The notes under the pieces are model-generated. The model searched no databases. It saw only the letters and a list, made by a program, of their open reading frames with translations, and was not told where the DNA came from. Positions 3,918-60,612 of a stretch of 64,000 bases of DNA are shown here, one piece after another (the first letter of the stretch is position 1; the number at the start of each line of letters is the position of its first letter). The translations under genes were made by a program, and so were the position numbers. This DNA is from Candidatus Falkowbacteria bacterium (lineage in GTDB: Bacteria; Patescibacteriota; Patescibacteriia; Patescibacteriales; GWE2-39-37): the NCBI GenBank assembly GCA_013336275.1, contig JAAXUA010000001.1:206167-270166 (forward strand), read 5' to 3'.

Positions 3918-5910
3918 GGGCAAAAAACGCTACCTAGTCATTGCTGGGGTCATTCTTGCGGCCGGTGGCTTCTTTTACAACAGCTACAAGCAAGGAAACA
4001 AGGTCGAATACACGACCGCTGAGGCCAAACTTTCTCGAATCGTCCAGACCGTCAATGAGACTGGCACAGTCAAGACTGCCACTGAAATCAAATTGAATTT
4101 CTTGGCCAACGGCAAGATCGCTAAGATCGGAGCCAAGATCGGCGACAAGGTCAAGAAGGACCAAGTCTTGGCCGAGTTGGATTATTCCAACCTCCTGATC
4201 CAGCAGAAACAGGCTCAGGCGAATCTGGATGTCGCCAAGGCCAATCTTGCAAAAATCGCCAACGGCGCAACCGTTCAGGACGTCACCATCAGCCTCTCAA
4301 GCGTCAAGCAAGCCGAGACAGCCTATGTCAACGCCCAAGCTAACTATGAAAAGGTCAAAAAATCGACTGCCGAAGCTATCGTACAGGCCCAGAAGAACTT
4401 ATCTGACCTAGAGTCCAGCAACAAGGCCGCTTCGACTTATGGCCAGGCTATCCTGACGGCTCAGAACAATCTCGATAATACGAACCGGACTTATCTCCAA
4501 ACTATCTCCAATCGCCGGACTTCTCTCTTGAATTCGGCAGAGAATCAGATTGCCGCCGCCCAGGCTGCCCTGGACGCTGCTAATCGCGTTTTTACCGATG
4601 ACAATGCCAAAGACACCCTGAGCATCCAGGACGCCGGCCAGCTGATCAAAGCCAAGGCAAGCTATGATGCGGCTTTGATCTTAGTTGCCCCAGCTCGAGC
4701 TGATTTGGCTGATGGCAAGCGGACGGGGGCCAACAATGATGCCCTGACTGCGGCAAACTCGGTTCTTGGTCTCTTGAATGAGACCTTGGATGTGCTCAAC
4801 GCCACCTTCGCCGCCTTATCCAAGTCGGTCACCAGCTCCAAATTTTCCCAAGCCTCGCTTGATGCTTTCAAAACCAGCATCAGCGCTCAGAACACAGCGA
4901 TCAACGCCGGCATTTCCAGCATCAGCACGGCTGAGCAGAATCTCTCTGACACAGTATTAGCCTATAACACTAATCTTTCTTCGGCTCAGTCCAGTCTGGA
5001 TCAGGCCCAGGCCGCTTTCAACAATGCCTTGACCAACGCACGCAATGCCTTGACCAACGCACGGCTTTCCGGCGACCAACAGAATGCTAACGCCAAATCG
5101 CAAGTCGATGCGACCCTGACTTCCTACAAGCTGGCACAGGCCCAGTATAACAAAACGGTAGCACCCGCCAGGCCGGAAGATTTCAAGCTCTTCGAAGCCC
5201 AGGTCGCCCAGGCCAAGGCCAATCTCGATGCCTTGATCAACCAGGCCAACAATAGCATCATCAAGTCGCCGATCGATGGCGAAATCACCCAGGTCAACTA
5301 CGAAATCGGAGAAGAGCCCGGCGCTGCTAAGCCGGTTATGGCAATCCTGAGCCATGACAATTTTGAAATCGAACTAGATATCTCAGAGGCTGACATAGTT
5401 AAAGTGAAGCAGGGCAACCCTGCCAGCGTCACCTTCGATGCCTTGGGCGAGGCCGCTAAGTTCGCCGCCGACGTCACTTTCATCGAGCCGGCCCAGACGG
5501 TCATCCAGGAAGTCGTATACTACAAGTGCACCGTGAGCAATCTCCGCTCCCTCGATGCTGCTGGCGATCCTCTCGGCTCTACTGCCGGCACTTCCAGCGC
5601 ATCCACGACACCAGTAGCCCCTAGTACTTCGACCAGCAGCCCCTTGCGGCTAATCCGCCCAGGCATGACGGCCAATGTCAGCATCACCACCGCTATCAAG
5701 GACCAGGTTCTGATCGTGCCCAGCCGGGCGGTGATAGACAAAGGAAATAGCCAGAAGGTAGTCCGTCTGCTCGTCAACAACCAGTTCGTCGAGACTCCGG
5801 TCACTGTCGGTCTGCGCGGTGATGAAGGACTGACCGAAATCATTTCCGGACTGAAGCCGGGTGACTTGGCGATCACATCGATCAAGAACGCCCCCGCAGT
5901 TAACCAATAA
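3907..5910 (+). CDS. HlyD/MacA-family membrane-fusion (periplasmic adaptor) protein with a very long coiled coil
   Basis: 667 aa. N-terminal TM helix, then about 340 aa of heptad-like Q/A/N-rich sequence. Lipoyl/beta-barrel motifs IKSPIDGEITQV and IRPGMTANVSI. S/T/P-rich insert (GSTAGTSSASTTPVAPSTSTSSP). Confidence 0.85.
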   Translation: MTLKGKKRYLVIAGVILAAGGFFYNSYKQGNKVEYTTAEAKLSRIVQTVNETGTVKTATEIKLNFLANGKIAKIGAKIGDKVKKDQVLAELDYSNLLIQQKQAQANLDVAKANLAKIANGATVQDVTISLSSVKQAETAYVNAQANYEKVKKSTAEAIVQAQKNLSDLESSNKAASTYGQAILTAQNNLDNTNRTYLQTISNRRTSLLNSAENQIAAAQAALDAANRVFTDDNAKDTLSIQDAGQLIKAKASYDAALILVAPARADLADGKRTGANNDALTAANSVLGLLNETLDVLNATFAALSKSVTSSKFSQASLDAFKTSISAQNTAINAGISSISTAEQNLSDTVLAYNTNLSSAQSSLDQAQAAFNNALTNARNALTNARLSGDQQNANAKSQVDATLTSYKLAQAQYNKTVAPARPEDFKLFEAQVAQAKANLDALINQANNSIIKSPIDGEITQVNYEIGEEPGAAKPVMAILSHDNFEIELDISEADIVKVKQGNPASVTFDALGEAAKFAADVTFIEPAQTVIQEVVYYKCTVSNLRSLDAAGDPLGSTAGTSSASTTPVAPSTSTSSPLRLIRPGMTANVSITTAIKDQVLIVPSRAVIDKGNSQKVVRLLVNNQFVETPVTVGLRGDEGLTEIISGLKPGDLAITSIKNAPAVNQ

Positions 5911-9868: not shown

Positions 9869-11881
9869 ATGTTCCGACTATCAGGTTCTGACAATCTGAA
9901 TCTCGCCAAGATTTTCCGTAGCGCTCGCAGCGTTGCCCAGAATTTTCCTCTGGTAAAAAAAGTCCGTCGTCGACGGCATATCTTTGCGGCGCTCAAGATC
10001 ATCTCGCTCTTGGCCTTGGTGACGATCCTGCTCCTGATCATTCTCTTTGCCGCCCATTTCCTCGCCTTCAAGAGCATCCTGGCCAGTTCCTTGTCAGGCA
10101 AGTCATCCTTGGAGCAGGCAGTCGGTATGGCTAAGCAGGGAGACTTCAAATCCGCCCAGGCAGCCGCCAATCAGGCAGCCAGTGATTTTTATTATGCCAC
10201 GAGCAATCTTGAAGATATAAAGACTAGCCTGGTTTTTAATCAGGTCGGCGCGTTGCAATACCAGGTCGGCCAGCTCGGCTATTTGGTCGGTTCGGCGGAG
10301 ATGCTATCAAGGGCGGTCGGACAAGCAGTATCATTCGGTCTTGAGCTGCAGAATCTCTTGGATGGCAATCGCCAGCTGAATTACTCGACTTTCAGTCCGG
10401 ATGAGAAAAAGAAGATTCTCGGCCGGATCCAATATTCCGGGCCTGAATTGACCGGCATGAAAGCCAATCTTGATCTAGCGCTATTGAATCTGGCCAACAT
10501 AACTTACCCTGGCGTCTTGTGGCCACTGAAAGGCAAGATCGATGAGACCAAGAATCTGGTCGGCGAAGCCTCACAGGTCTTAGGCAAGTTGGCGCCTATG
10601 TCCCAGATCATACCGGCGTTGGCTGGCTATCCTAGCACCTCGACTTATCTGGTGCTGTTCCAGAATAGCGACGAATTGAGGCCGACAGGCGGCTTCTTAG
10701 GGACTTATGGCATCCTGCAGATGGAGAGCGGCGACATCTCAAGGTTCGAGACCCACGATATCTACCACATGGATATGCCAGTCAAAGACAAGGTGGATGT
10801 CATTCCGCCGGAACCGATAAGGAAATATCTGAACGCAAAATGGTATATGCGCGACGCTAACTGGTCGCCAGACTGGCCGACCGCCGCACAAAAAATAGAG
10901 TGGTTTTATAATCTGGAAAATCCGCTCTTGCCACCCAAGGACCAGGTCAATAATTTTTCCGGACAATTTGATGGCGTCATAGCGATTACGCCGAAACTGG
11001 TGACCGATCTATTGGCGATCGTCGGCCCGATCGTAATTGATGGCCAAGAATACAACCCGACCAACTTCGTCGACCTTTTAGAGTACCGGGTTGAAAAAGG
11101 CTATGTCCAACTCGGCGTCTCCTCCTGGCAGAGAAAAGAGGTGATAGGCCAGATAATGAAGGAAATGAAGATCCGGCTGATGAACCTGCCATCGGATAAA
11201 TGGCGCACGATATTGATGGTTTTTGATAACAATGTCGCTTCGAAAGATATATTGGTCTACCTGCACGATCAAGTGCTGCAGGGCTTGGCCAAAGAGCAGG
11301 GCTGGACTGGAGAGATCAAGCAGCCGCAAAGCGATTACCTGATGATCGTGGATGCGAACCTGGCCAGTTTGAAAACCGATGCCGTCATGAACCGTAGTGT
11401 CAGCTACGAGGTCAAGGAAGGAACGGACCGGCTGACCTCCCGGCTTATCATAAATTATGCCCACCGTGGCAAGCCGGACTGGAAAACCAGCTATTACCAG
11501 ACCTACACCCGGGTTTACGTGCCCAAAGGCAGCCGTCTGATCAAGATGGAAGGATGCAACAGCAAGCCGGACATTATCGATGAATATAACAAGACGGCCT
11601 TCGGTTGCCAGCTTATCGTTCCATTCAACCAAGTAGCGCCGCTCGTGTTGGAGTATGATCTCCCGAACCACCTGAAGACCGCCCTTGCCAAGAATGGTTA
11701 TGGCTTATTTGTTCAAAAACAGCCAGGCAACCAAGTCTCTGAATTGGCAGTTGACTTAAGCTTCATCAATGGTATAAAATCTTATAGTCCAGTAGGTTTC
11801 TCGGTCAATTTCCTGACTGGCAACCGAATCGGCTGGCTGACCGACCTGACACTCGACCGGCAGTACTCAGTCTCGTTTTAG
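9869..11881 (+). CDS. DUF4012 domain membrane-anchored protein
   Basis: 670 aa. N-terminal TM, then NSDELRPTGGFLGTYG and W.MRDANWSPDWP motifs typical of DUF4012. A paralog lies at 27387. Confidence 0.75.
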   Translation: MFRLSGSDNLNLAKIFRSARSVAQNFPLVKKVRRRRHIFAALKIISLLALVTILLLIILFAAHFLAFKSILASSLSGKSSLEQAVGMAKQGDFKSAQAAANQAASDFYYATSNLEDIKTSLVFNQVGALQYQVGQLGYLVGSAEMLSRAVGQAVSFGLELQNLLDGNRQLNYSTFSPDEKKKILGRIQYSGPELTGMKANLDLALLNLANITYPGVLWPLKGKIDETKNLVGEASQVLGKLAPMSQIIPALAGYPSTSTYLVLFQNSDELRPTGGFLGTYGILQMESGDISRFETHDIYHMDMPVKDKVDVIPPEPIRKYLNAKWYMRDANWSPDWPTAAQKIEWFYNLENPLLPPKDQVNNFSGQFDGVIAITPKLVTDLLAIVGPIVIDGQEYNPTNFVDLLEYRVEKGYVQLGVSSWQRKEVIGQIMKEMKIRLMNLPSDKWRTILMVFDNNVASKDILVYLHDQVLQGLAKEQGWTGEIKQPQSDYLMIVDANLASLKTDAVMNRSVSYEVKEGTDRLTSRLIINYAHRGKPDWKTSYYQTYTRVYVPKGSRLIKMEGCNSKPDIIDEYNKTAFGCQLIVPFNQVAPLVLEYDLPNHLKTALAKNGYGLFVQKQPGNQVSELAVDLSFINGIKSYSPVGFSVNFLTGNRIGWLTDLTLDRQYSVSF

Positions 11882-11945
11882 CGCCAATAATTGCCAATAA
11901 TATTAGCGTTTTTAGCTGGTTATTGGCAATTTTTAATAATACCGC

Positions 11946-12953
11946 ATGTTTATCAAAAGAATCGGCATCGATCTAGGCACAACCTATACTTTGGTCCATC
12001 TGCCAAAACGGGGGATTGTCATCAACGAACCGAGCGTGGTTGCGATTTCAGTTACGGACAAGAAGATTCTGGCCGTCGGCAACGAGGCCAAGGACATGCT
12101 TGGGCGCACTCCTGACACCATTATCGCCTTAAAACCCCTGAAGGACGGCGTTATCGCTGATTACCGGGCCACTGAGGCTATGCTTAGATATTTCATCAAC
12201 AAGTCCCTGGGCGGCATCCGCCTATTTCGTCCTGAAGTCATGGTCGCCGTGCCTGCTGGCATTTCCTCGACCGAACGCCGTGCCGTCATTGACGCCACCA
12301 TCGCAGCTGGAGCCAAGGCAGCCTATATCATCAAGGAGCCGGTCGCGGCCGCTATCGGCGCTGACATACCGATCGGCTCGGCGTCGGGCCACATGATCAT
12401 CGATATCGGCGGCGGTACTGCTGAAATGGCTGTCATCTCCTTGGGCGGTATCGTGGCCTCGACTTCGGTCAGGGTCGGAGGCACCCGTTTCGATAGCGCC
12501 ATCATCGACTACATCAGACGCAAATACAATCTCTCGATCGGCGAGCGCACAGCCGAAGAGATCAAAATCAATATCGGCTCAGCTTTATATCTTGAAAACA
12601 AGCTAACCATGGAAATCCGCGGACGCGATATCGTGACCGGGCTGCCACGGAGCATTATCGTCACCTCGAACGATGTGACCGAGGCGTTGCAGAACGAGTT
12701 GGAAGCGATCATCAATGCTGTCAAAAAAGTCCTGCACGAGACCCCTCCGGAACTTTCCTCGGACATTATGGACAAGGGCATGGTCCTGTCCGGCGGCAGC
12801 TCGCTTCTGCGCAATATCGACCAGCTCCTGTCTCGCGCCACTGGCGTTCCGGCCTACATCGCCAATGACGCCCTCCTTTGCGTCGCGAAGGGAACCGGCA
12901 TCGCTTTGGAAAATCTTGATTCATATAAGCGCAGCATCCTCGCAACCAAATAA
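11946..12953 (+). CDS. mreB: rod-shape-determining actin homolog MreB
   Basis: IGIDLGTTYTLV, IKEPVAAAIGA, IIDIGGGTAE, VLSGGSSLLRNID. Confidence 0.95.
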   Translation: MFIKRIGIDLGTTYTLVHLPKRGIVINEPSVVAISVTDKKILAVGNEAKDMLGRTPDTIIALKPLKDGVIADYRATEAMLRYFINKSLGGIRLFRPEVMVAVPAGISSTERRAVIDATIAAGAKAAYIIKEPVAAAIGADIPIGSASGHMIIDIGGGTAEMAVISLGGIVASTSVRVGGTRFDSAIIDYIRRKYNLSIGERTAEEIKINIGSALYLENKLTMEIRGRDIVTGLPRSIIVTSNDVTEALQNELEAIINAVKKVLHETPPELSSDIMDKGMVLSGGSSLLRNIDQLLSRATGVPAYIANDALLCVAKGTGIALENLDSYKRSILATK

Positions 12954-29924: not shown

Positions 29925-30000
29925 GCAAATCTTTTGAGAATTGATTTTATCGCGCATACGTACTCGTCTAAGCAGGAAAATTAATTCTCAAAAGATTTGC
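29925..30000. repeat. foldback element copy 1: 24-bp stem (one G.T) around a conserved 28-nt loop
   Basis: Arms gcaaatcttttgagaattgatttt / aaaattaattctcaaaagatttgc. Loop atcGCGCATACGTACTCGTCTAAGCAGG. The core is shared with 37560-37598. Confidence 0.75.
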
Positions 30001-33799: not shown

Positions 33800-33824
33800 A
33801 AAGGGCCCAGTTCAATCTGGGCCC
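33797..33824 (-). terminator. hairpin plus U-tract terminator for the minus-strand gene (convergent with tgt)
   Basis: gggcccag-ttcaat-ctgggccc. The A5 on the + strand gives a U5 for the minus-strand transcript. Confidence 0.55.
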
Positions 33825-33856
33825 CGAGATACTGACAATAGAAGTACCGTTGACAA

Positions 33857-34204
33857 TCACTGTTCCGCCAACTCGCACAACCTGTTTGCTCCTGCAAATG
33901 CAACGCGATAGAAGCAGCGAGACATGCCAGGAACACCAGACCAACATTTCTCGATAAGTCTGGAATCCTCTGCGAGTTGCATGTCAGAACCAGAAACTGA
34001 ACTTCTGGCTATGGCGTCGAATCCGCTTACACGGTTGCCGACTGATACTCTTTTTGCAGTTTGAATGAGCGCGATCACTGCTCGGTCGTTAGCAGCCATA
34101 ATTTGCTCCACCGTTTCTAGGGATATTTTTGCAACAGCACTAAGTGCAATCGCCGAAATTTCCCACTCCTCATACGGAACTCCACCTGATTTTTGGGGAA
34201 TCAT
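33857..34204 (-). CDS. hypothetical protein (115 aa) with a strong SD
   Basis: ccAGGAGGtgcttATG supports a start at 34204 (MIPQKSGGVPYEEW...). No motif recognised. Confidence 0.55.
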   Translation of the reverse strand: MIPQKSGGVPYEEWEISAIALSAVAKISLETVEQIMAANDRAVIALIQTAKRVSVGNRVSGFDAIARSSVSGSDMQLAEDSRLIEKCWSGVPGMSRCFYRVAFAGANRLCELAEQ

Positions 34205-34373
34205 AAGCACCTCCTGGTACGAATGGTTGGGTAATATCTGATTAAGCAAGTTATCATTAATTATTTACATAGTCAATAATCAAAGCCTGTAAGTCCTGTA
34301 TTTATCAACACCCGATATTTTTTCACAAAAAATACACCAGACTTATACCATTAAACACGCTGTTTATCGGGCT

Positions 34374-36140: not shown

Positions 36141-37217
36141 ATGCCAAAAAATAGGAAAAAGATAATAATCTCGATGTCGGGCGGAGTGGATTCTTCGGTG
36201 GCCGCCGCCTTATTGAAAGAGCAGGGACATGAACTGATCGGCATCTTCATGCATTTTTGGGCTGAAGAAAGCCAAAATACGGGCCAGACCAACAAGTGCT
36301 GCTCGGTCGAATCGTTCAATGACGCCCGCCGCGTGGCCAATCAGCTGGGCTTTCCTTTATATACCCTGAATCTTGATGACCAATTCAAAAAAGAGATTGT
36401 TGACGATTTCCTCTTGGAATACCAGCGGGGCAATACGCCCAACCCGTGCGTAGCCTGCAACAAATTCATCAAGTTTGATGCCATCCTGAAAAAGGCTGAG
36501 GAGCTAGGTTTTGATGCCGTGGCCACCGGCCACTACGCCCGAATCGTAGAAAACGACGGCCATCTGCATCTGGCCAGACCCAAAGACCTGAACAAGGACC
36601 AAACCTATTTCCTTTACACCTTGAGCGAAGAGAAACTTAAGAAGATAATTTTTCCTTTGGCCGAGCTGACCAAGCCCGAAGTAAGGGAACTGGCCAAAAA
36701 ATTCGGCTTGACCACAGCTTCGAAGCCCGAGAGTCAGGAAATCTGTTTCGTCGGCTCGAACGACCACAACGATTTCCTTAGACGTCACCTCGACCTCAAG
36801 CCAGGACCGATCGTCACTTTGGACGGACAGACACTGGGCGAACACAAAGGTTTACCGCTTTACACGCTTGGCCAGCGCAAAGGCGTAGAAATCGGCGGCA
36901 TCGGCCCATTCTACGTAGCCGGATTTGATTATCCCAAAAATATCCTGTATGTTACCAGCAACGGCGAAGGTCCGGAGCTTTACCGCGATCAACTCCAAGT
37001 GAACGATATTTCTTGGACCGGCAGCGAACCAGCCTTTCCGTTCGAATGCCAGGCCGTTATCCGTTATCGACACAAGCCTTGCGAAGTCACCATCGACCGT
37101 GCAGGCGATTCATCATATACTGTTCATTTCAAAACACCCCAGCGTGCCATCACGCCAGGGCAAAGCGTAGTCTTCTATCAAGACGATACCGTTATCGGCG
37201 GAGGAATCATAATCTAG
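36141..37217 (+). CDS. mnmA: tRNA 2-thiouridine(34) synthase
   Basis: SMSGGVDSSVAA PP-loop, CCS...DARRVA, NPCVACNKFIKF. Confidence 0.95.
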   Translation: MPKNRKKIIISMSGGVDSSVAAALLKEQGHELIGIFMHFWAEESQNTGQTNKCCSVESFNDARRVANQLGFPLYTLNLDDQFKKEIVDDFLLEYQRGNTPNPCVACNKFIKFDAILKKAEELGFDAVATGHYARIVENDGHLHLARPKDLNKDQTYFLYTLSEEKLKKIIFPLAELTKPEVRELAKKFGLTTASKPESQEICFVGSNDHNDFLRRHLDLKPGPIVTLDGQTLGEHKGLPLYTLGQRKGVEIGGIGPFYVAGFDYPKNILYVTSNGEGPELYRDQLQVNDISWTGSEPAFPFECQAVIRYRHKPCEVTIDRAGDSSYTVHFKTPQRAITPGQSVVFYQDDTVIGGGIII

Positions 37218-37238: not shown

Positions 37239-37421
37239 ATGCCACTAAGTCCATACTGCTCAGGCAATCAAGTTGCCACACCTAAACCGAGCTGCACCTG
37301 TCATCTTTATTCCAAATCAGATGAGTTGATCCACCATACCTGCCCGGTGTGCGGACCGACTCACAACGGCGGCACTATGCGCCAATCTTCCAACGAAAGG
37401 GGGTGTTCTACTTGTTCATAA
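37239..37421 (+). CDS. Cys-rich 60-aa protein (7 Cys; CxC, CPVC and CSTC motifs)
   Basis: AGGAGGgaaagATG SD lies 21 nt after the mnmA stop. A terminator follows downstream. Sequence: MPLSPYCSGNQVATPKPSCTCHLYSKSDELIHHTCPVCGPTHNGGTMRQSSNERGCSTCS. Confidence 0.5.
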   Translation: MPLSPYCSGNQVATPKPSCTCHLYSKSDELIHHTCPVCGPTHNGGTMRQSSNERGCSTCS

Positions 37422-37472: not shown

Positions 37473-37518
37473 GGGCCGGCAATCTACCGCAAGGATGATT
37501 GACCGGCCCTCTTTTTTT
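37473..37518 (+). terminator. rho-independent terminator
   Basis: gggccgg...(23-nt loop)...ccggccc followed by tcttttttt. Confidence 0.6.
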
Positions 37519-37541: not shown

Positions 37542-37615
37542 GCCCAGCCTCGGTATTAAATTTTAATGCGCATACGTACTCGTCTAAGCAGGAAAATTTA
37601 ATACCGAGGCTGGGC
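37542..37615. repeat. foldback element copy 2: 23-bp perfect stem around the conserved 28-nt loop
   Basis: Arms gcccagcctcggtattaaatttt / aaaatttaataccgaggctgggc. Loop aatGCGCATACGTACTCGTCTAAGCAGG. Followed by gtttt. Confidence 0.75.
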
Positions 37616-37640: not shown

Positions 37641-37668
37641 TTGAAAAAAATGCGAAAATCAGTATAAT
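37641..37668 (+). promoter_or_regulatory. alaS promoter TTGAAA-16-TATAAT
   Basis: ttgaaa(37641)-16 nt-tataat(37663). Implies an SD-less leader of about 23 nt. Confidence 0.6.
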
Positions 37669-37697: not shown

Positions 37698-39560
37698 ATG
37701 ACCGCCAACGAACTTAGGCAGAAATATCTCGATTTCTTCAAATCAAAAGGCCACTCAATCATTCCGAGCGCCTCATTGATGCCGGAAAATGACCCGACAG
37801 TACTATTTACCACTGCCGGCATGCATCCGTTGGTGCCATACCTGATGGGCGAGAACCATCCAGGCGGGACGCGCGTCGCCGACGTACAGAAATGCATCCG
37901 CACCGGCGACATCGACGACGTAGGCGACAATCGCCATCTGACTTTTTTTGAAATGTTAGGCAATTGGTCGTTCGGCGACTACTTCAAAAAAGAGGCTATC
38001 AGCTGGAGTTGGGAATTCCTAACTTCCAAAGAATGGCTCGGCCTCGACCCAAATCGCTTATACGTCACCGTCTTTATGGGCAATGACGACTCGCCAGTAG
38101 ATGAAGAATCGATCGGCGTCTGGCAAGAACAGTTCGCCAAGTTCGGCATCAAGGCCGAGGTCTGTCCTTATGGAGAGAAGATTGCCGGCAATCCTGCCTA
38201 CCGCATCTTCACCTTGCCTGCCAAAGACAACTGGTGGGGACCGGCCGGCGAGACAGGCCCATGCGGCCCATGCTCCGAGATGTTTTATGACGTCCGACCA
38301 GCAGAAGGCGCGCTCGAACTGACCTTCGACGAAGAGGTCGACCGCTTCCGTATCATGGAAATCTGGAATGATGTCTTCATGGAATTCAACAAAGTAGCCC
38401 CCGGCCAATTCGAGAAACTATCACAAAAGAATGTCGACACTGGCATGGGACTCGAACGTACCATCACCGTCCTGACCGGCAAACAGAGCGTCTTCGAGAC
38501 CGACATCTTCAAAACCATATTCGCCAAGATTGAAAGCCTGACCGGCAAAACCTATGGCGCAGACGAAAAAGATGACAAAGCCATGCGCGTCATCGCTGAC
38601 CACCTCAAAGCTTCAACCTTTATAATCGGCGACAACAAGGGGGTGACTCCATCGAACAACGCACACGGCTACGTCGTGCGACGCCTCTTGAGGCGCGCTA
38701 TGCGTTACGGACGCCAGCTCGGCCTGATCAATCAGATTTGGATCAGCGAGGTTGCCAAGGTAATTATCGCCGATTTTGCCGACATCTACCCGGAATTAGC
38801 TAAAAATAGCGACTTTGTTTTGGCCCAACTCAGCGAAGAAGAGGAAAAATTCAGCAAGACTCTGGAAAACGGCTTGAAAGAGTTTGAAAAGCTCAAAAAC
38901 AAGACCCAGATTGCCGAAAGGCTGATTGACGGCGTCGACGCCTTCAATCTATACCAGACTTACGGCTTTCCTTTGGAAATCACCAAAGAACTGGCAGCCG
39001 AAGCCGGCTTAACCATCGATGAAGCAGCCTTTAACCAGGAGCTGGAGAAGCATCAGGAACTTTCACGCACCGCTTCAGCTGGAATGTTCAAGGGCGGTTT
39101 GGCTGATGCCTCGGACGAAACCAAGAAACTTCACACCGCCGCTCACTTGATGTTAGCCGCCTTACGCCAAGTTTTGGGAGACCACATCCAGCAAAAGGGC
39201 TCAAACATCACCGCCGAGCGCCTGCGCTTCGACTTTTCTCATCCGGACAAGATGACCCCCGAACAAATCGCTCAGGTCGAGGCCATCGTCAATAAGAATA
39301 TCGCTGATGACCTGCCGGTAGGCTACCAGGAGATGACCCTGGAGGAGGCCAAGGCCATCGGTGCAACCGGCGTTTTTGAGTCTAAATATGGAGAAAAAGT
39401 GAAGGTTTATACCGCCGGCGAGGGAGCTAATATCGCCAGCCGGGAGATCTGCGGCGGCCCTCATGTTGACAGAACTGGAATTTTAGGTAAATTTAAGATA
39501 CAGAAAGAAGAAAGTTCGTCTTCTGGCGTCCGCCGTATCAAAGCGGTACTGGAACAGTAG
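37698..39560 (+). CDS. alaS: alanyl-tRNA synthetase, short form lacking the C-Ala domain
   Basis: N-terminal LRQKYLDFFKSKGH..LFTTAGM. Editing-domain HTAAHLM...CGGPHV. 620 aa versus about 870 in E. coli. Confidence 0.92.
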   Translation: MTANELRQKYLDFFKSKGHSIIPSASLMPENDPTVLFTTAGMHPLVPYLMGENHPGGTRVADVQKCIRTGDIDDVGDNRHLTFFEMLGNWSFGDYFKKEAISWSWEFLTSKEWLGLDPNRLYVTVFMGNDDSPVDEESIGVWQEQFAKFGIKAEVCPYGEKIAGNPAYRIFTLPAKDNWWGPAGETGPCGPCSEMFYDVRPAEGALELTFDEEVDRFRIMEIWNDVFMEFNKVAPGQFEKLSQKNVDTGMGLERTITVLTGKQSVFETDIFKTIFAKIESLTGKTYGADEKDDKAMRVIADHLKASTFIIGDNKGVTPSNNAHGYVVRRLLRRAMRYGRQLGLINQIWISEVAKVIIADFADIYPELAKNSDFVLAQLSEEEEKFSKTLENGLKEFEKLKNKTQIAERLIDGVDAFNLYQTYGFPLEITKELAAEAGLTIDEAAFNQELEKHQELSRTASAGMFKGGLADASDETKKLHTAAHLMLAALRQVLGDHIQQKGSNITAERLRFDFSHPDKMTPEQIAQVEAIVNKNIADDLPVGYQEMTLEEAKAIGATGVFESKYGEKVKVYTAGEGANIASREICGGPHVDRTGILGKFKIQKEESSSSGVRRIKAVLEQ

Positions 39561-43986: not shown

Positions 43987-44019
43987 ACGAACAGTATACA
44001 CCTCTTTGTATATACCAAC

Positions 44020-44055
44020 AAATAACCTCCGACACGCTCGGAGGTTATTTGTTTT
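44020..44055 (+). terminator. rho-independent terminator ending the ribosomal-protein operon
   Basis: 13-bp stem aaataacctccga / tcggaggttattt, 5-nt loop, then gtttt. Confidence 0.88.
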
Positions 44056-59139: not shown

Positions 59140-59151
59140 CCACTTTTCAAT

Positions 59152-59184
59152 AAAAAAACCGCGCTGACAAAGCGCGGTTTTTTT
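59152..59184. terminator. rho-independent terminator (bidirectional shape)
   Basis: aaaaaaaccgcgct-gacaa-agcgcggttttttt. Confidence 0.88.
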
Positions 59185-59646
59185 ATTGAAACTGCGACTT
59201 CCCTGTGCTAAAATTAATAAAAGAGCAGGGCAATGGGGCCTCGGTCCCGATATTTATAAAGAGCCAGGGAAGTACTAGTTCCCTCCTAATCCTCAAAAAA
59301 ATGGAAGCGGCATTCAAGTTCCTATTCGCCTTCGGCATATTCATCTTCTGTTTGGTAGTTATCGGCTTCTTTATCTTGTTGATAAAATTCCTGCTGCTGT
59401 TTACCGACCACATCCAGATCATGGGCGTGATAATGACCAGCAGCTAGTATTCGGACACGAACTCTTGATAATAACGATGGCACTTATCCTGTGAACAGGC
59501 CGTCAAGCACAAACTGTCAAAACCCACACGGACAAGGTGTGGTGTTATATCATACACCCTTCATTTCGATTAATCTACATTACGCGAAGTGACATATGGG
59601 TGGTATAACTATACCCAAGGTTAGCTAAAAAATATCGCCCTACCCC

Positions 59647-60612
59647 ATGAGCAAGTCCCAAAAACCTATAATCGACTACCTCTACGACTTCCTCGACTAC
59701 CTCGAGATAGAAAAAGGTCTGGCCTCTGAGTCGCAAAAAAATTATTCACGATTCTTGAAGAAATTTTTCGACTGGCTGGAAGACACTGACTTGGCCGAAC
59801 TCAAGCCAGGCCAGCTGACTGCGGATCATGTCTGGAAGTACCGGCTCTACCTCTCTCGTCACCAAAGCGAACGGAGCAGGGCGAACTTGAAGAAGAGCAC
59901 ACAGAACTACTACCTCATCGCCCTACGCAACCTATTGGCTTACTTCGTGGAAAAGGACATCACTTCCCTGCCGCCTGATAAAATAAAACTGGCCAAAGAG
60001 AAATCGGACAAACAGGTGACCTTTTTAAAAATCGACCAGATCGAAAAGTTGCTCCTAGCTCCGGACACGACCTCGGTCAGCGGCCTCCGTGATCGGGCCA
60101 TCCTTGAGACTCTTTTCTCGACCGGACTGCGGGTGGCCGAGCTGACCCGCCTTGACCGCGACCAGCTGAAAATCAAGCCGGGGAGCAACACCTTTTTAGA
60201 AATCAGCATTACAGGCAAAGGCAGCAAGGTCCGCACCGTCTATTTCTCTGAACGGACAGTGCAGTGGCTAGCCAAATATCTGGCCAAGCGCTCGGACATC
60301 GACCCTGCCCTGTTCATCAACTTCACCACGGCCCAGCAGAAGAGCGAGTCGCGCCGCCTGACCGTCCGCTCGATCGAAAACATCGTCAAGAAATATATCA
60401 AGATTTCCGGACTGCCGATAATGTCCAGCCCGCATACTCTCCGCCACTCATACGCTACTGACCTTTTATCCCAAGGCGTCGACCTGAGGCTGGTCCAAGA
60501 GTTCCTTGGCCACGCCAATATCGCCACTACCCAGATCTATACCCACGTGACCAACAAGCAGCTCCGCGACGTGCACCAGAAATTCCACTCTGGCAAGAAT
60601 CTCAAGAACTAG
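59647..60612 (+). CDS. XerC/XerD-family tyrosine site-specific recombinase
   Basis: 321 aa. SAM-like N-domain. RDRAILETLFSTGLRVAEL, HTLRHSYATDLL, LGHANIATTQIYTHV (R-H-R-Y catalytic set). Confidence 0.9.
   Translation: MSKSQKPIIDYLYDFLDYLEIEKGLASESQKNYSRFLKKFFDWLEDTDLAELKPGQLTADHVWKYRLYLSRHQSERSRANLKKSTQNYYLIALRNLLAYFVEKDITSLPPDKIKLAKEKSDKQVTFLKIDQIEKLLLAPDTTSVSGLRDRAILETLFSTGLRVAELTRLDRDQLKIKPGSNTFLEISITGKGSKVRTVYFSERTVQWLAKYLAKRSDIDPALFINFTTAQQKSESRRLTVRSIENIVKKYIKISGLPIMSSPHTLRHSYATDLLSQGVDLRLVQEFLGHANIATTQIYTHVTNKQLRDVHQKFHSGKNLKN

Follow-up and report, generated by a model that had tools for sequence, protein, structure and literature searches.

A dispersed hairpin element with a free stem and a conserved tip in a clade of Patescibacteria

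The locus

Between the mnmA and alaS genes of a Candidatus Falkowbacteria bacterium lies a hairpin, at 37542-37615, made of a 74-base perfect inverted repeat in which a 23-bp stem encloses a 28-nt tip. The stretch analyzed here, called the window throughout, is the whole 64,000 nt taken from contig JAAXUA010000001.1 (assembly GCA_013336275.1, positions 206,167 to 270,166, forward strand), and coordinates given without a locus name refer to it. The hairpin belongs to a family whose members are dispersed, low in copy number and found in a clade of Patescibacteria; among named relatives, Candidatus Falkowbacteria is the nearest. The window holds a further copy at 29925-30000; we refer to the latter as copy 1 (c1) and to the hairpin at 37542-37615 as copy 2 (c2), and L-numbers denote loci from other genomes and metagenomes. 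The features concerned are as follows.

37542-37564, + strand: 5' arm of the outer helix (P1) of c2, GCCCAGCCTCGGTATTAAATTTT; the lower 18 nt are sequence-free and the top is ATTTT
37565-37592, + strand: conserved 28-nt tip of c2, AATGCGCATACGTACTCGTCTAAGCAGG
37568-37573 and 37584-37591, + strand: invariant parts of the tip, GCGCAT and CTAAGCAG, respectively
37574-37576 with 37581-37583, + strand: inner helix, ACG with CGT, closing the free tetraloop TACT at 37577-37580
37593-37615, + strand: 3' arm of P1, AAAATTTAATACCGAGGCTGGGC, Watson-Crick paired with the 5' arm at 23/23 positions
29925-30000, + strand: c1, with arms at 29925-29948 and 29977-30000, a 24-bp stem containing one G.T pair and a 28-nt tip
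37474-37518, + strand: terminator-like hairpin with T-run, GGCCGGCAATC / GATTGACCGGCC, downstream of a Cys-rich open reading frame (ORF); context, outside the element
37641-37668, + strand: promoter-like site of alaS, TTGAAA-16-TATAAT, score 11/12; context
37698-39560, + strand: alaS, encoding a short alanyl-tRNA synthetase (AlaRS) of 620 aa; context

The genes around c2 are thus mnmA (36141-37217), the 60-aa Cys-rich ORF and the short alaS, and c1 lies between a DUF4012 gene, whose stop codon is 13 nt upstream, and a DUF11 gene, whose start is 44 nt downstream. A first-pass annotation of this DNA had placed c2 between a terminator and the alaS promoter, with 25 nt separating it from the -35 box and gtttt directly behind it, and had described a 23-bp perfect inverted repeat whose top pairs, ATTTT/AAAAT, recur in c1; all of this holds, the -35 box TTGAAA lying at 37641. 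The distance to the terminator-like hairpin had been put at 24 nt, but it is 23 nt when counted from the end of the T-run at 37518. A consensus terminator scan misses this hairpin, its loop being longer than 8 nt; it is kept in the orthologous locus L019, where the alaS promoter-like site is identical. The promoter-like site is also present in L020, which has no element.

A small Cys/His-rich ORF (60-66 aa, no Pfam match) follows mnmA in three relatives (window 37239-37421, L019 832-978 and L020 5016-5216), and a conserved terminator-like hairpin comes directly after it. In L020, two extra genes, one of them PRK/CYTH, lie between this ORF and alaS.

A hairpin family with a free stem and a fixed tip

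The two copies in the window share an exact 25-nt core, GCGCATACGTACTCGTCTAAGCAGG, which occurs there twice, at 29952 and 37568, both on the + strand; the expected number of matches was 0 in 100 shuffles. The first-pass annotation had counted 25 of 28 matching loop positions. This figure is the length of the unbroken core; the loops differ at only 2 of 28 positions, and the stems differ at 13 of 23 pairs. Folding z-scores were -9.8 (c2) and -7.2 (c1) as RNA and -9.2 and -7.1 as DNA, and the hairpin is stable as DNA whichever strand is considered.

Further copies came from one genome scan with the exact core and one metagenome scan with a degenerate core. The genome scan led to a related 772-kb contig, CAYUCS010000001.1, with approximately 77-82% DNA identity. 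On this contig, a new site between dnaK and a CYTH gene is occupied (L001), and the orthologue of c1 is present, directly behind which stands a more divergent second copy in tandem (L002). The contig is labelled 'uncultured Gammaproteobacteria', but its genes and those of the window (DUF4012, a short AlaRS, best matches in Patescibacteria/Falkowbacteria) indicate a bacterium of the candidate phyla radiation (CPR), and the label is probably wrong. The metagenome scan added seven more true copies (L007, identical to L012; L008; L009; L010; L013; L014; and L018, which has two) and also returned five kinds of chance match without a flanking repeat. In total, the family occupies 10 sites, with 12 distinct intact copies and, in addition, one copy that is split and one that is broken.

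The hosts form a narrow Patescibacteria clade together with one other lineage. Relatives of their AlaRS and tryptophanyl-tRNA synthetase (TrpRS) place these organisms in Patescibacteria, and the TrpRS of the L010 genome has a relative, 96% identical, that is named Candidatus Falkowbacteria. The second lineage is represented by L009 (=L022), from a Hainich groundwater metagenome-assembled genome (GCA_964366745.1) that shows no DNA similarity to the window and nevertheless retains 23 bp and 28 nt; its T-run sits 4 bp lower in the stem. Relatives of this lineage have no element at the clpB site (L023, L024).

In every true copy, the outer stem begins 26 nt before GCGCAT, and the arms measure 22-24 nt and the spacer 27-28 nt. 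The idea, put forward from c1 and c2, that geometry is constrained and sequence is not is thereby upheld, even in the unrelated lineage. The accompanying remark that stems start and end with GC is true of these two copies but not of the family, other members of which start with CCTGGC, GTCCCGC, CCCGAC or TACATC. An ungapped alignment of the 12 copies, from which a covariance model was built, gives the same picture at the level of single columns. GCGCAT, CGT, CG and CTAAGCAG are invariant, all 23 outer-stem pairs vary on both sides, and 97.9% of all cells are paired (in the outer stem, among 276 cells, 266 are Watson-Crick, 4 are G.T and 6 are mismatched). None of 500 shuffles reached this covariation and pairing, and slid controls paired 41-48% of cells. 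The outer helix is topped by 4-6 A/T pairs. The inner 3-bp helix changes from ACG/CGT to GCG/CGC in L002b, the tandem second copy, and its tetraloop occurs as TACT, TACC, TAAT, TCTT and TACA.

Orthologous pairs show how the stem changes. The tips of c2 and L019 are identical at all but 1 of 28 positions; in the stem, a block of positions has been replaced on both arms with compensation, including a compensated 1-nt indel, and the adjoining unconstrained spacer has diverged heavily. The first copy in L002 (L002a) differs from c1 by three compensated pairs and by a change of the G.T pair to G-C, and in L018 the tip is nearly unchanged and the stem has drifted with compensation. Non-orthologous copies, too, keep residual stem similarity, on the one hand among c1, L008, L002b and L007 (c1 and L008 are 87.5% identical over 64 nt) and on the other between L010 and L014. 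This similarity suggests that the whole hairpin, stem and tip together, is the inherited unit and that the stem then drifts with compensation.

Searches for known or additional relatives gave a consistent result. With Rfam at gathering thresholds, the whole window yielded 0 matches, and the core matches no Rfam family; in E-value mode, there were just generic long-hairpin matches (miRNA precursors, at most 31 bits against thresholds of 50-140) that align to the stem and not to the tip. ARAGORN found 0 tRNA or tmRNA genes in the window, and a tRNA-like element was rejected on this result. Viral contigs gave 0 matches to three patterns, one of which allowed a free inner hairpin, and blastn against phage and plasmid collections gave no match. 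The literature searched on such elements in the CPR contained no description. A small ORF in the tip is not conserved either: c2, L013 and L009 have an ATG, and the other copies do not preserve it.

In the window, the covariance model run with filters off recovered just ordinary short-loop hairpins in addition to c1 and c2. Native perfect palindromes with arms of 16-21 bp and 5-nt loops occur at window 59145-59191 and 44017-44053 and at L014 2577-2623. They are built as an A-run, a G+C core and a T-run, resembling bidirectional terminators, and their build is clearly unlike that of the element. A different hairpin at window 11886-11934 (15-nt arms, 19-nt loop) stands right behind the stop codon of a second DUF4012 gene (9869-11881). 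The loop of this hairpin bears no relation to the conserved tip, and an mreB-like gene begins at 11946.

The split copy and the folded form

The covariance model also found a copy at L031 4071-4171 (- strand) that consists of TTTTTATTGCGCATACG, 69 nt, and then CGTCTAAGCAGGAAAA. Here, the tetraloop of the inner helix is replaced by the 69 nt, itself a hairpin (TTTTTAGTGCAAAGTAAT..ATTATTTTGCACTAAAAA), and the inner helix is lengthened to ACGGAT/ATCCGT. The outer stem has decayed, and both conserved halves are identical to the consensus at 33 of 33 positions. Since the halves are conserved while split by 69 nt, the invariant strings would be neighbours only in the folded strand. The conserved object thus appears to be an asymmetric internal loop between two helices, in which GCGCAU and CUAAGCAG would face each other across a short inner helix with a free, enlargeable loop. 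If folding alone brings these strings together, then the element would work in a folded single-stranded form, and the split copy argues against a contiguous site for a protein on duplex DNA.

In L018, the tandem second copy (4921-5004) can be compared with its counterpart at L002 119-194, the two genomes being near-identical. The left arm and the tip are identical, and the right arm and the downstream sequence have diverged strongly. The pattern resembles that of a recombination break at this tip, one that left the stem unpaired in L018.

Orientation and strand asymmetry

The element lies 13-120 nt after a stop codon and ahead of the next promoter. Its orientation relative to the neighbouring genes falls into three groups.

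Co-oriented with the neighbouring genes: c1, its tandem partner, c2 (=L013/L019), L008 and L014
Antisense to both neighbours: L001, L007, L010 (=L027/L028/L025) and L031
Between convergent genes: L009

The first-pass annotation had noted that both copies lie downstream of a gene end in the same orientation, which is correct for c1 and c2 but is not a rule for the family, given the four antisense sites. What holds everywhere is the polarity relative to local GC skew: the strand that carries GCGCAT is the locally C-rich strand (negative GC skew) at 10 of 10 sites. The GC skew of the element strand is as follows.

Window (c1, c2): -0.06
L001: -0.07
L002 / L018: -0.11
L007: -0.06
L008: -0.11
L009 / L022: -0.05 / -0.09
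L010 / L027: -0.03 / -0.04
L013 / L019: -0.10 / -0.05
L014: -0.16
L031: -0.05

For ten insertions with a single polarity, a two-sided sign test gives approximately 0.002, with three of the sites sharing one region and with GC skew being only an indirect measure of the direction of replication. The skew depends on region and strand and not on coding. The genes on the + strand of the window mostly have negative skew and those of L027 and L031 mostly positive skew; L027 (positive) and L019 (negative) differ in coding-strand skew within one assembly; and in L001, genes of both orientations concur on which strand is C-rich.

Negative coding-strand skew extends across the window, including the infA-rpsM-rpsK-rpsD-rpoA-rplQ cluster, and positive coding-strand skew extends across the 14-19-kb trpS regions of close relatives. 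This contrast reflects either large gene blocks on opposite replication strands or an unusual skew rule in the clade.

A promoter-like site was found neither inside nor upstream of it at c1 or c2, nor at a fixed distance across the family, and the terminator scan made no call at c1 or c2.

Turnover among close relatives

The spacer between trpS and ddl was compared in three near relatives whose TrpRS fall into one 90% cluster, and it exists in three states: with the element (L027, L010, L028, L025), empty at 11 nt (L031), and with a different repeat composed of inverted ATTCCCGCGCAGGCGGGAAT units (L030). The spacer between tgt and the CAP gene likewise has three states, namely the element (L008), an ATTCCC-type repeat (L020), and a plain 8-bp hairpin plus a 580-nt insert (window). 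Upstream of alaS, L020 lacks the element and has a terminator followed directly by the promoter. In the 26 kb available from the L020/L030 genome (Ga0451576 population), there is no copy of the conserved-tip family.

The other repeat forms a second hairpin family (L020 2002-2074 and L030 6163-6250), in which two inverted ATTCCCGCGCAGGCGGGAAT units surround a variable spacer in a REPIN-like manner. In this one sister genome, it occupies the exact spots at which the conserved-tip element stands in relatives. One arm of the L030 copy carries an insert of 27 nt, and neither the window nor any other locus contains the repeat, which fits the ATTCCC-N8-GGGAAT pattern of the Neisseria dRS3 repeat.

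The content of the spacer behind tgt differs in each of three relatives. In the window, the plain 8-bp hairpin at 33803-33824 (GGGCCCAG..CTGGGCCC) has no T-run, and approximately 550 nt at 33830-34360 have no counterpart in relatives; these include a reverse ORF (33857-34249, 130 aa, no Pfam match).

Interpretation

We propose, with a probability of roughly 40%, that the element is a dispersed hairpin that is recognized as single-stranded DNA with specificity for one replication strand; its logic would be that of REP or attC sites, with the roles of conserved and free parts exchanged. The polarity follows a replication-type strand asymmetry and not gene direction, and no promoter is present; we therefore infer that the folded strand is DNA. 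In such a scheme, the two helices would supply the fold and a trans-acting factor would read the asymmetric internal loop on DNA that the replication fork exposes. Recognition of the element and its copying to new intergenic places would fall to a strand-specific enzyme whose gene lies elsewhere in the genome, as in REP/RAYT systems (RAYT, REP-associated tyrosine transposase), at IS200/IS605 ends or at integron attC sites, apart from this exchange of parts. Copies behind genes would also be transcribed, and a strong hairpin at the mRNA 3' end is a likely side effect.

Several observations weigh against this proposal. The exact 25-nt core occurs just twice in the 772-kb contig, a low copy number unlike that of REP families, and the tip is strictly kept at old orthologous copies, which a purely selfish element would not explain. 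The flanks of 11 copies share no target motif beside the stems; CGTC is confined to the interior of the tip, and GTTTT follows the stem in c2 and L013 only. The skew test was made on short loci without assignment of the leading strand; the C-rich strand bears the ribosomal-protein cluster, and the G-rich strand bears the tRNA gene adjacent to the L007 copy. No HUH/Y1 transposase, reverse transcriptase or Cas gene was found in the window or the fetched loci, which cover less than 10% of any genome. The sole recombinase in the window is an Xer-like tyrosine recombinase at 59647-60612 (Phage_integrase, 5e-36), 22 kb from the element. Finally, the 5 or 6 wobble-type mismatches are all G.U when read on the gene-sense strand, both of those in the antisense copy L010 included, which hints that pairing may also be selected in RNA, namely in the mRNA.

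Small palindromes (GGTGTTATATCATACACC; GGTATAACTATACC) at 59520-59640 precede the Xer-like gene and might be the recombinase's own site or operator.

The G.U bias leads to the main rival explanation, which we consider rather unlikely: a hairpin that acts in cis, as RNA, where transcription units end, and whose duplex of approximately 23 bp would process or protect the 3' end of the upstream mRNA while an RNA-binding protein binds the tip. A duplex of approximately 23 bp is the length that RNase III needs, and a 23-bp stem is retained even in the distant copy L009. The invariable position between a stop codon and the next promoter, the presence of other hairpins at the same spots in relatives, the strong covariation of both helices and the variation of inner-hairpin length, as in structured RNAs, all accord with a function in RNA. 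However, at the four antisense sites, gene-sense RNA would carry the complement of the tip, and the tip is equally conserved there; orientation follows GC skew and not transcription. The element also has no U-tract, c2 is already preceded by a terminator-like hairpin, the 11-nt empty spacer of L031 indicates that no hairpin is needed after trpS, and G.U pairs are very rare (4 of 276 cells).

The uniform polarity at all 10 sites, the low copy number and the strict conservation of the tip, both in orthologous copies and in the second lineage, could alternatively mark a chromosomal signal of the host with replication polarity. In that case, the hairpin would form on one template strand, be selected site by site and not be mobile; we regard this as improbable. 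A version in which the internal loop is displayed to a dedicated protein, as a polar mark for replication restart, priming, fork control or segregation, or chromosome orientation, is improbable to the same degree. Presence and absence differ among very close relatives, the sister genome without a copy in 26 kb has another repeat at these positions, and one copy is a tandem duplicate, another has decayed and a third is split. We know of no precedent for a polar chromosomal signal with a free 23-bp stem. If true, it would be the first such signal defined by a fold with a free stem and not by duplex sequence.

A third explanation, suggested in the first-pass annotation, is a mobile module of approximately 39 nt (ATTTT..core..AAAAT) that inserts into the tips of older palindromes. 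The top A/T pairs do accompany the core in most copies, the tip of L031 holds another hairpin and so shows that hairpin tips accept insertions, and the genome has native perfect palindromes of 16-21 bp. Comparison of orthologous spacers, however, did not reveal a module-free palindrome at any site; what was seen instead was the empty spacer of L031, the terminator-then-promoter arrangement of L020 and the different repeat of L020 and L030. Removal of the module would leave loop-less 36-bp palindromes, unlike the native terminators with their G+C-rich tops and A/T-runs at the base. The stems of separate copies are still related, as between c1 and L008, and the T-run of L009 lies 4 bp below the tip. 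We consider the module very improbable.

Least credible among the explanations that we weighed is a family of independently transcribed small RNA genes co-directional with replication. Were the C-rich strand, which bears the ribosomal-protein cluster, the leading strand, such genes would account for a polarity that ignores the neighbouring genes, and the element is conserved in the way typical of RNA families. However, promoter-like sites do not recur at a consistent distance, and several copies could not accommodate one (the L007 copy has its foot 26 nt from a tRNA-Pro(cgg) gene, L007 1462-1533, - strand, on the opposite strand, and the L008 copy abuts the end of tgt); there is also neither a terminator after the stem nor an Rfam match.

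Three further candidates were rejected: an invertible switch with the arms as inverted repeats (orthologous copies keep their orientation across genomes, and 28 bp is too short to invert), arms acting as guides or target mimics (dismissed without a scan, as orthologous arms drift freely with compensation), and K-turn, loop E, tetraloop-receptor, bulge-helix-bulge or anticodon-like motifs (the required GA/GA, AGUA/GAA and UAUGG/CCUAAG patterns are absent).

Returning to the proposed single-stranded DNA site, we consider its significance to lie in the combination of its properties. A polarity relative to strand asymmetry that is independent of transcription is rare and points to an event at the replication fork, and the free stem, the fixed loop and the split copy together suggest that a protein or other factor reads the folded single strand. 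The hosts have reduced genomes, are uncultured, and have almost no described non-coding elements. In these organisms, the covarying motif and its covariance model offer a handle for a search for partners by gene co-occurrence and for the study of CPR genome dynamics. Should it prove to be no more than a selfish repeat specific to this lineage, the element would be of modest value, as a marker of strain-level turnover.

Comparison with known systems

Dispersed hairpin repeats are common in bacteria, and REP (repetitive extragenic palindromic) sequences, REPINs, miniature inverted-repeat transposable elements (MITEs) and attC sites conserve the stem or its foot. The novelty of the present element is the reverse pattern, a free stem with a fixed apical internal loop.

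REP sequences occur in tens to hundreds of copies; their stem is conserved, as is a tetranucleotide at its foot (GTAG or CGTC), and what varies freely is the loop or spacer. The present family resembles REP/REPIN families as a lineage-specific set of short intergenic hairpin repeats just past stop codons, which are retained at orthologous sites yet gained and lost between relatives, and the REPIN-like ATTCCCGCGCAGGCGGGAAT repeat fills the very spacers of a sister genome in which this element stands elsewhere. Position near gene ends is likewise shared. The copies are few, however (2 exact cores in the 772-kb contig and 2 in the 64-kb window), the stem is free and the tip is fixed, c1 and c2 do not share a conserved stem sequence (13 of 23 pairs differ, against 2 of 28 tip positions), and the flanks of the 11 copies contain no shared GTAG/CGTC foot. 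No RAYT (Y1 HUH) was found among the ORFs of the window or the called genes of the fetched loci.

The hairpins at the ends of IS200/IS605 elements and of their miniature derivatives are read in single-stranded DNA by shape and a few bases, and the orientation of these elements is reportedly tied to the replication strand (Ton-Hoang et al. 2010); a replication-strand-biased orientation is also what we observe at 10 of 10 sites, by the skew proxy. The difference is that here a single hairpin is the whole element, with no distinct left and right ends and no conserved flanking tetranucleotide, and no TnpA or TnpB was seen in the window or the fetched loci. Integron attC sites share a structure that is kept while sequence is free, a folded single-stranded DNA form, a terminal part of variable length and a replication-linked orientation. 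They differ in having conserved R and L boxes at the stem base and extrahelical bases, whereas the present element has a free, perfectly paired base and a conserved apical part. No integrase, cassette array or cassette ORF pattern adjoins it, and its neighbours are housekeeping genes (mnmA, alaS, tgt, trpS and dnaK).

Intercistronic RNase III hairpins and intrinsic terminators are similar in lying behind genes and in having a duplex of about two helical turns, but the element has no U-tract, its conserved tip is asymmetric and its orientation is independent of transcription. Neither c1 nor c2 combines a G+C-rich stem, a short loop and a U-tract in the manner of an intrinsic terminator. TIGR arrays (tandem interspaced guide RNA), found in parasitic bacteria including the CPR, consist of units in which conserved inner motifs are flanked by sequences that vary but always stay palindromic (Faure et al. 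2025, PMC12045711). Here, the interior of the element is invariant, the copies are solitary, and there are no RUGAUGA/CUGA box motifs or variable spacers; with no tas gene either, and no Nop-domain protein in the window, a TIGR stem-loop unit was rejected.

The dif/Xer system invites comparison through length (28 nt against the 28 bp of dif, arranged 11-6-11), partial dyad symmetry with a variable centre, the Xer-like gene in the window and 8 nt, TGCGCATA, common to the element and the XerC arm of E. coli dif, the dif sequence having been checked. An Xer/dif core site was nevertheless rejected: nothing in the element resembles the conserved XerD arm, copies of it are several, and the halves of L031 stay conserved although split by 69 nt, which a contiguous duplex site would not tolerate.

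The element thus falls outside the definitions of Rfam families, REP/REPIN sequences, attC sites, terminators, TIGR units and dif, and what it shares with the elements that act as single-stranded DNA is their replication polarity alone.

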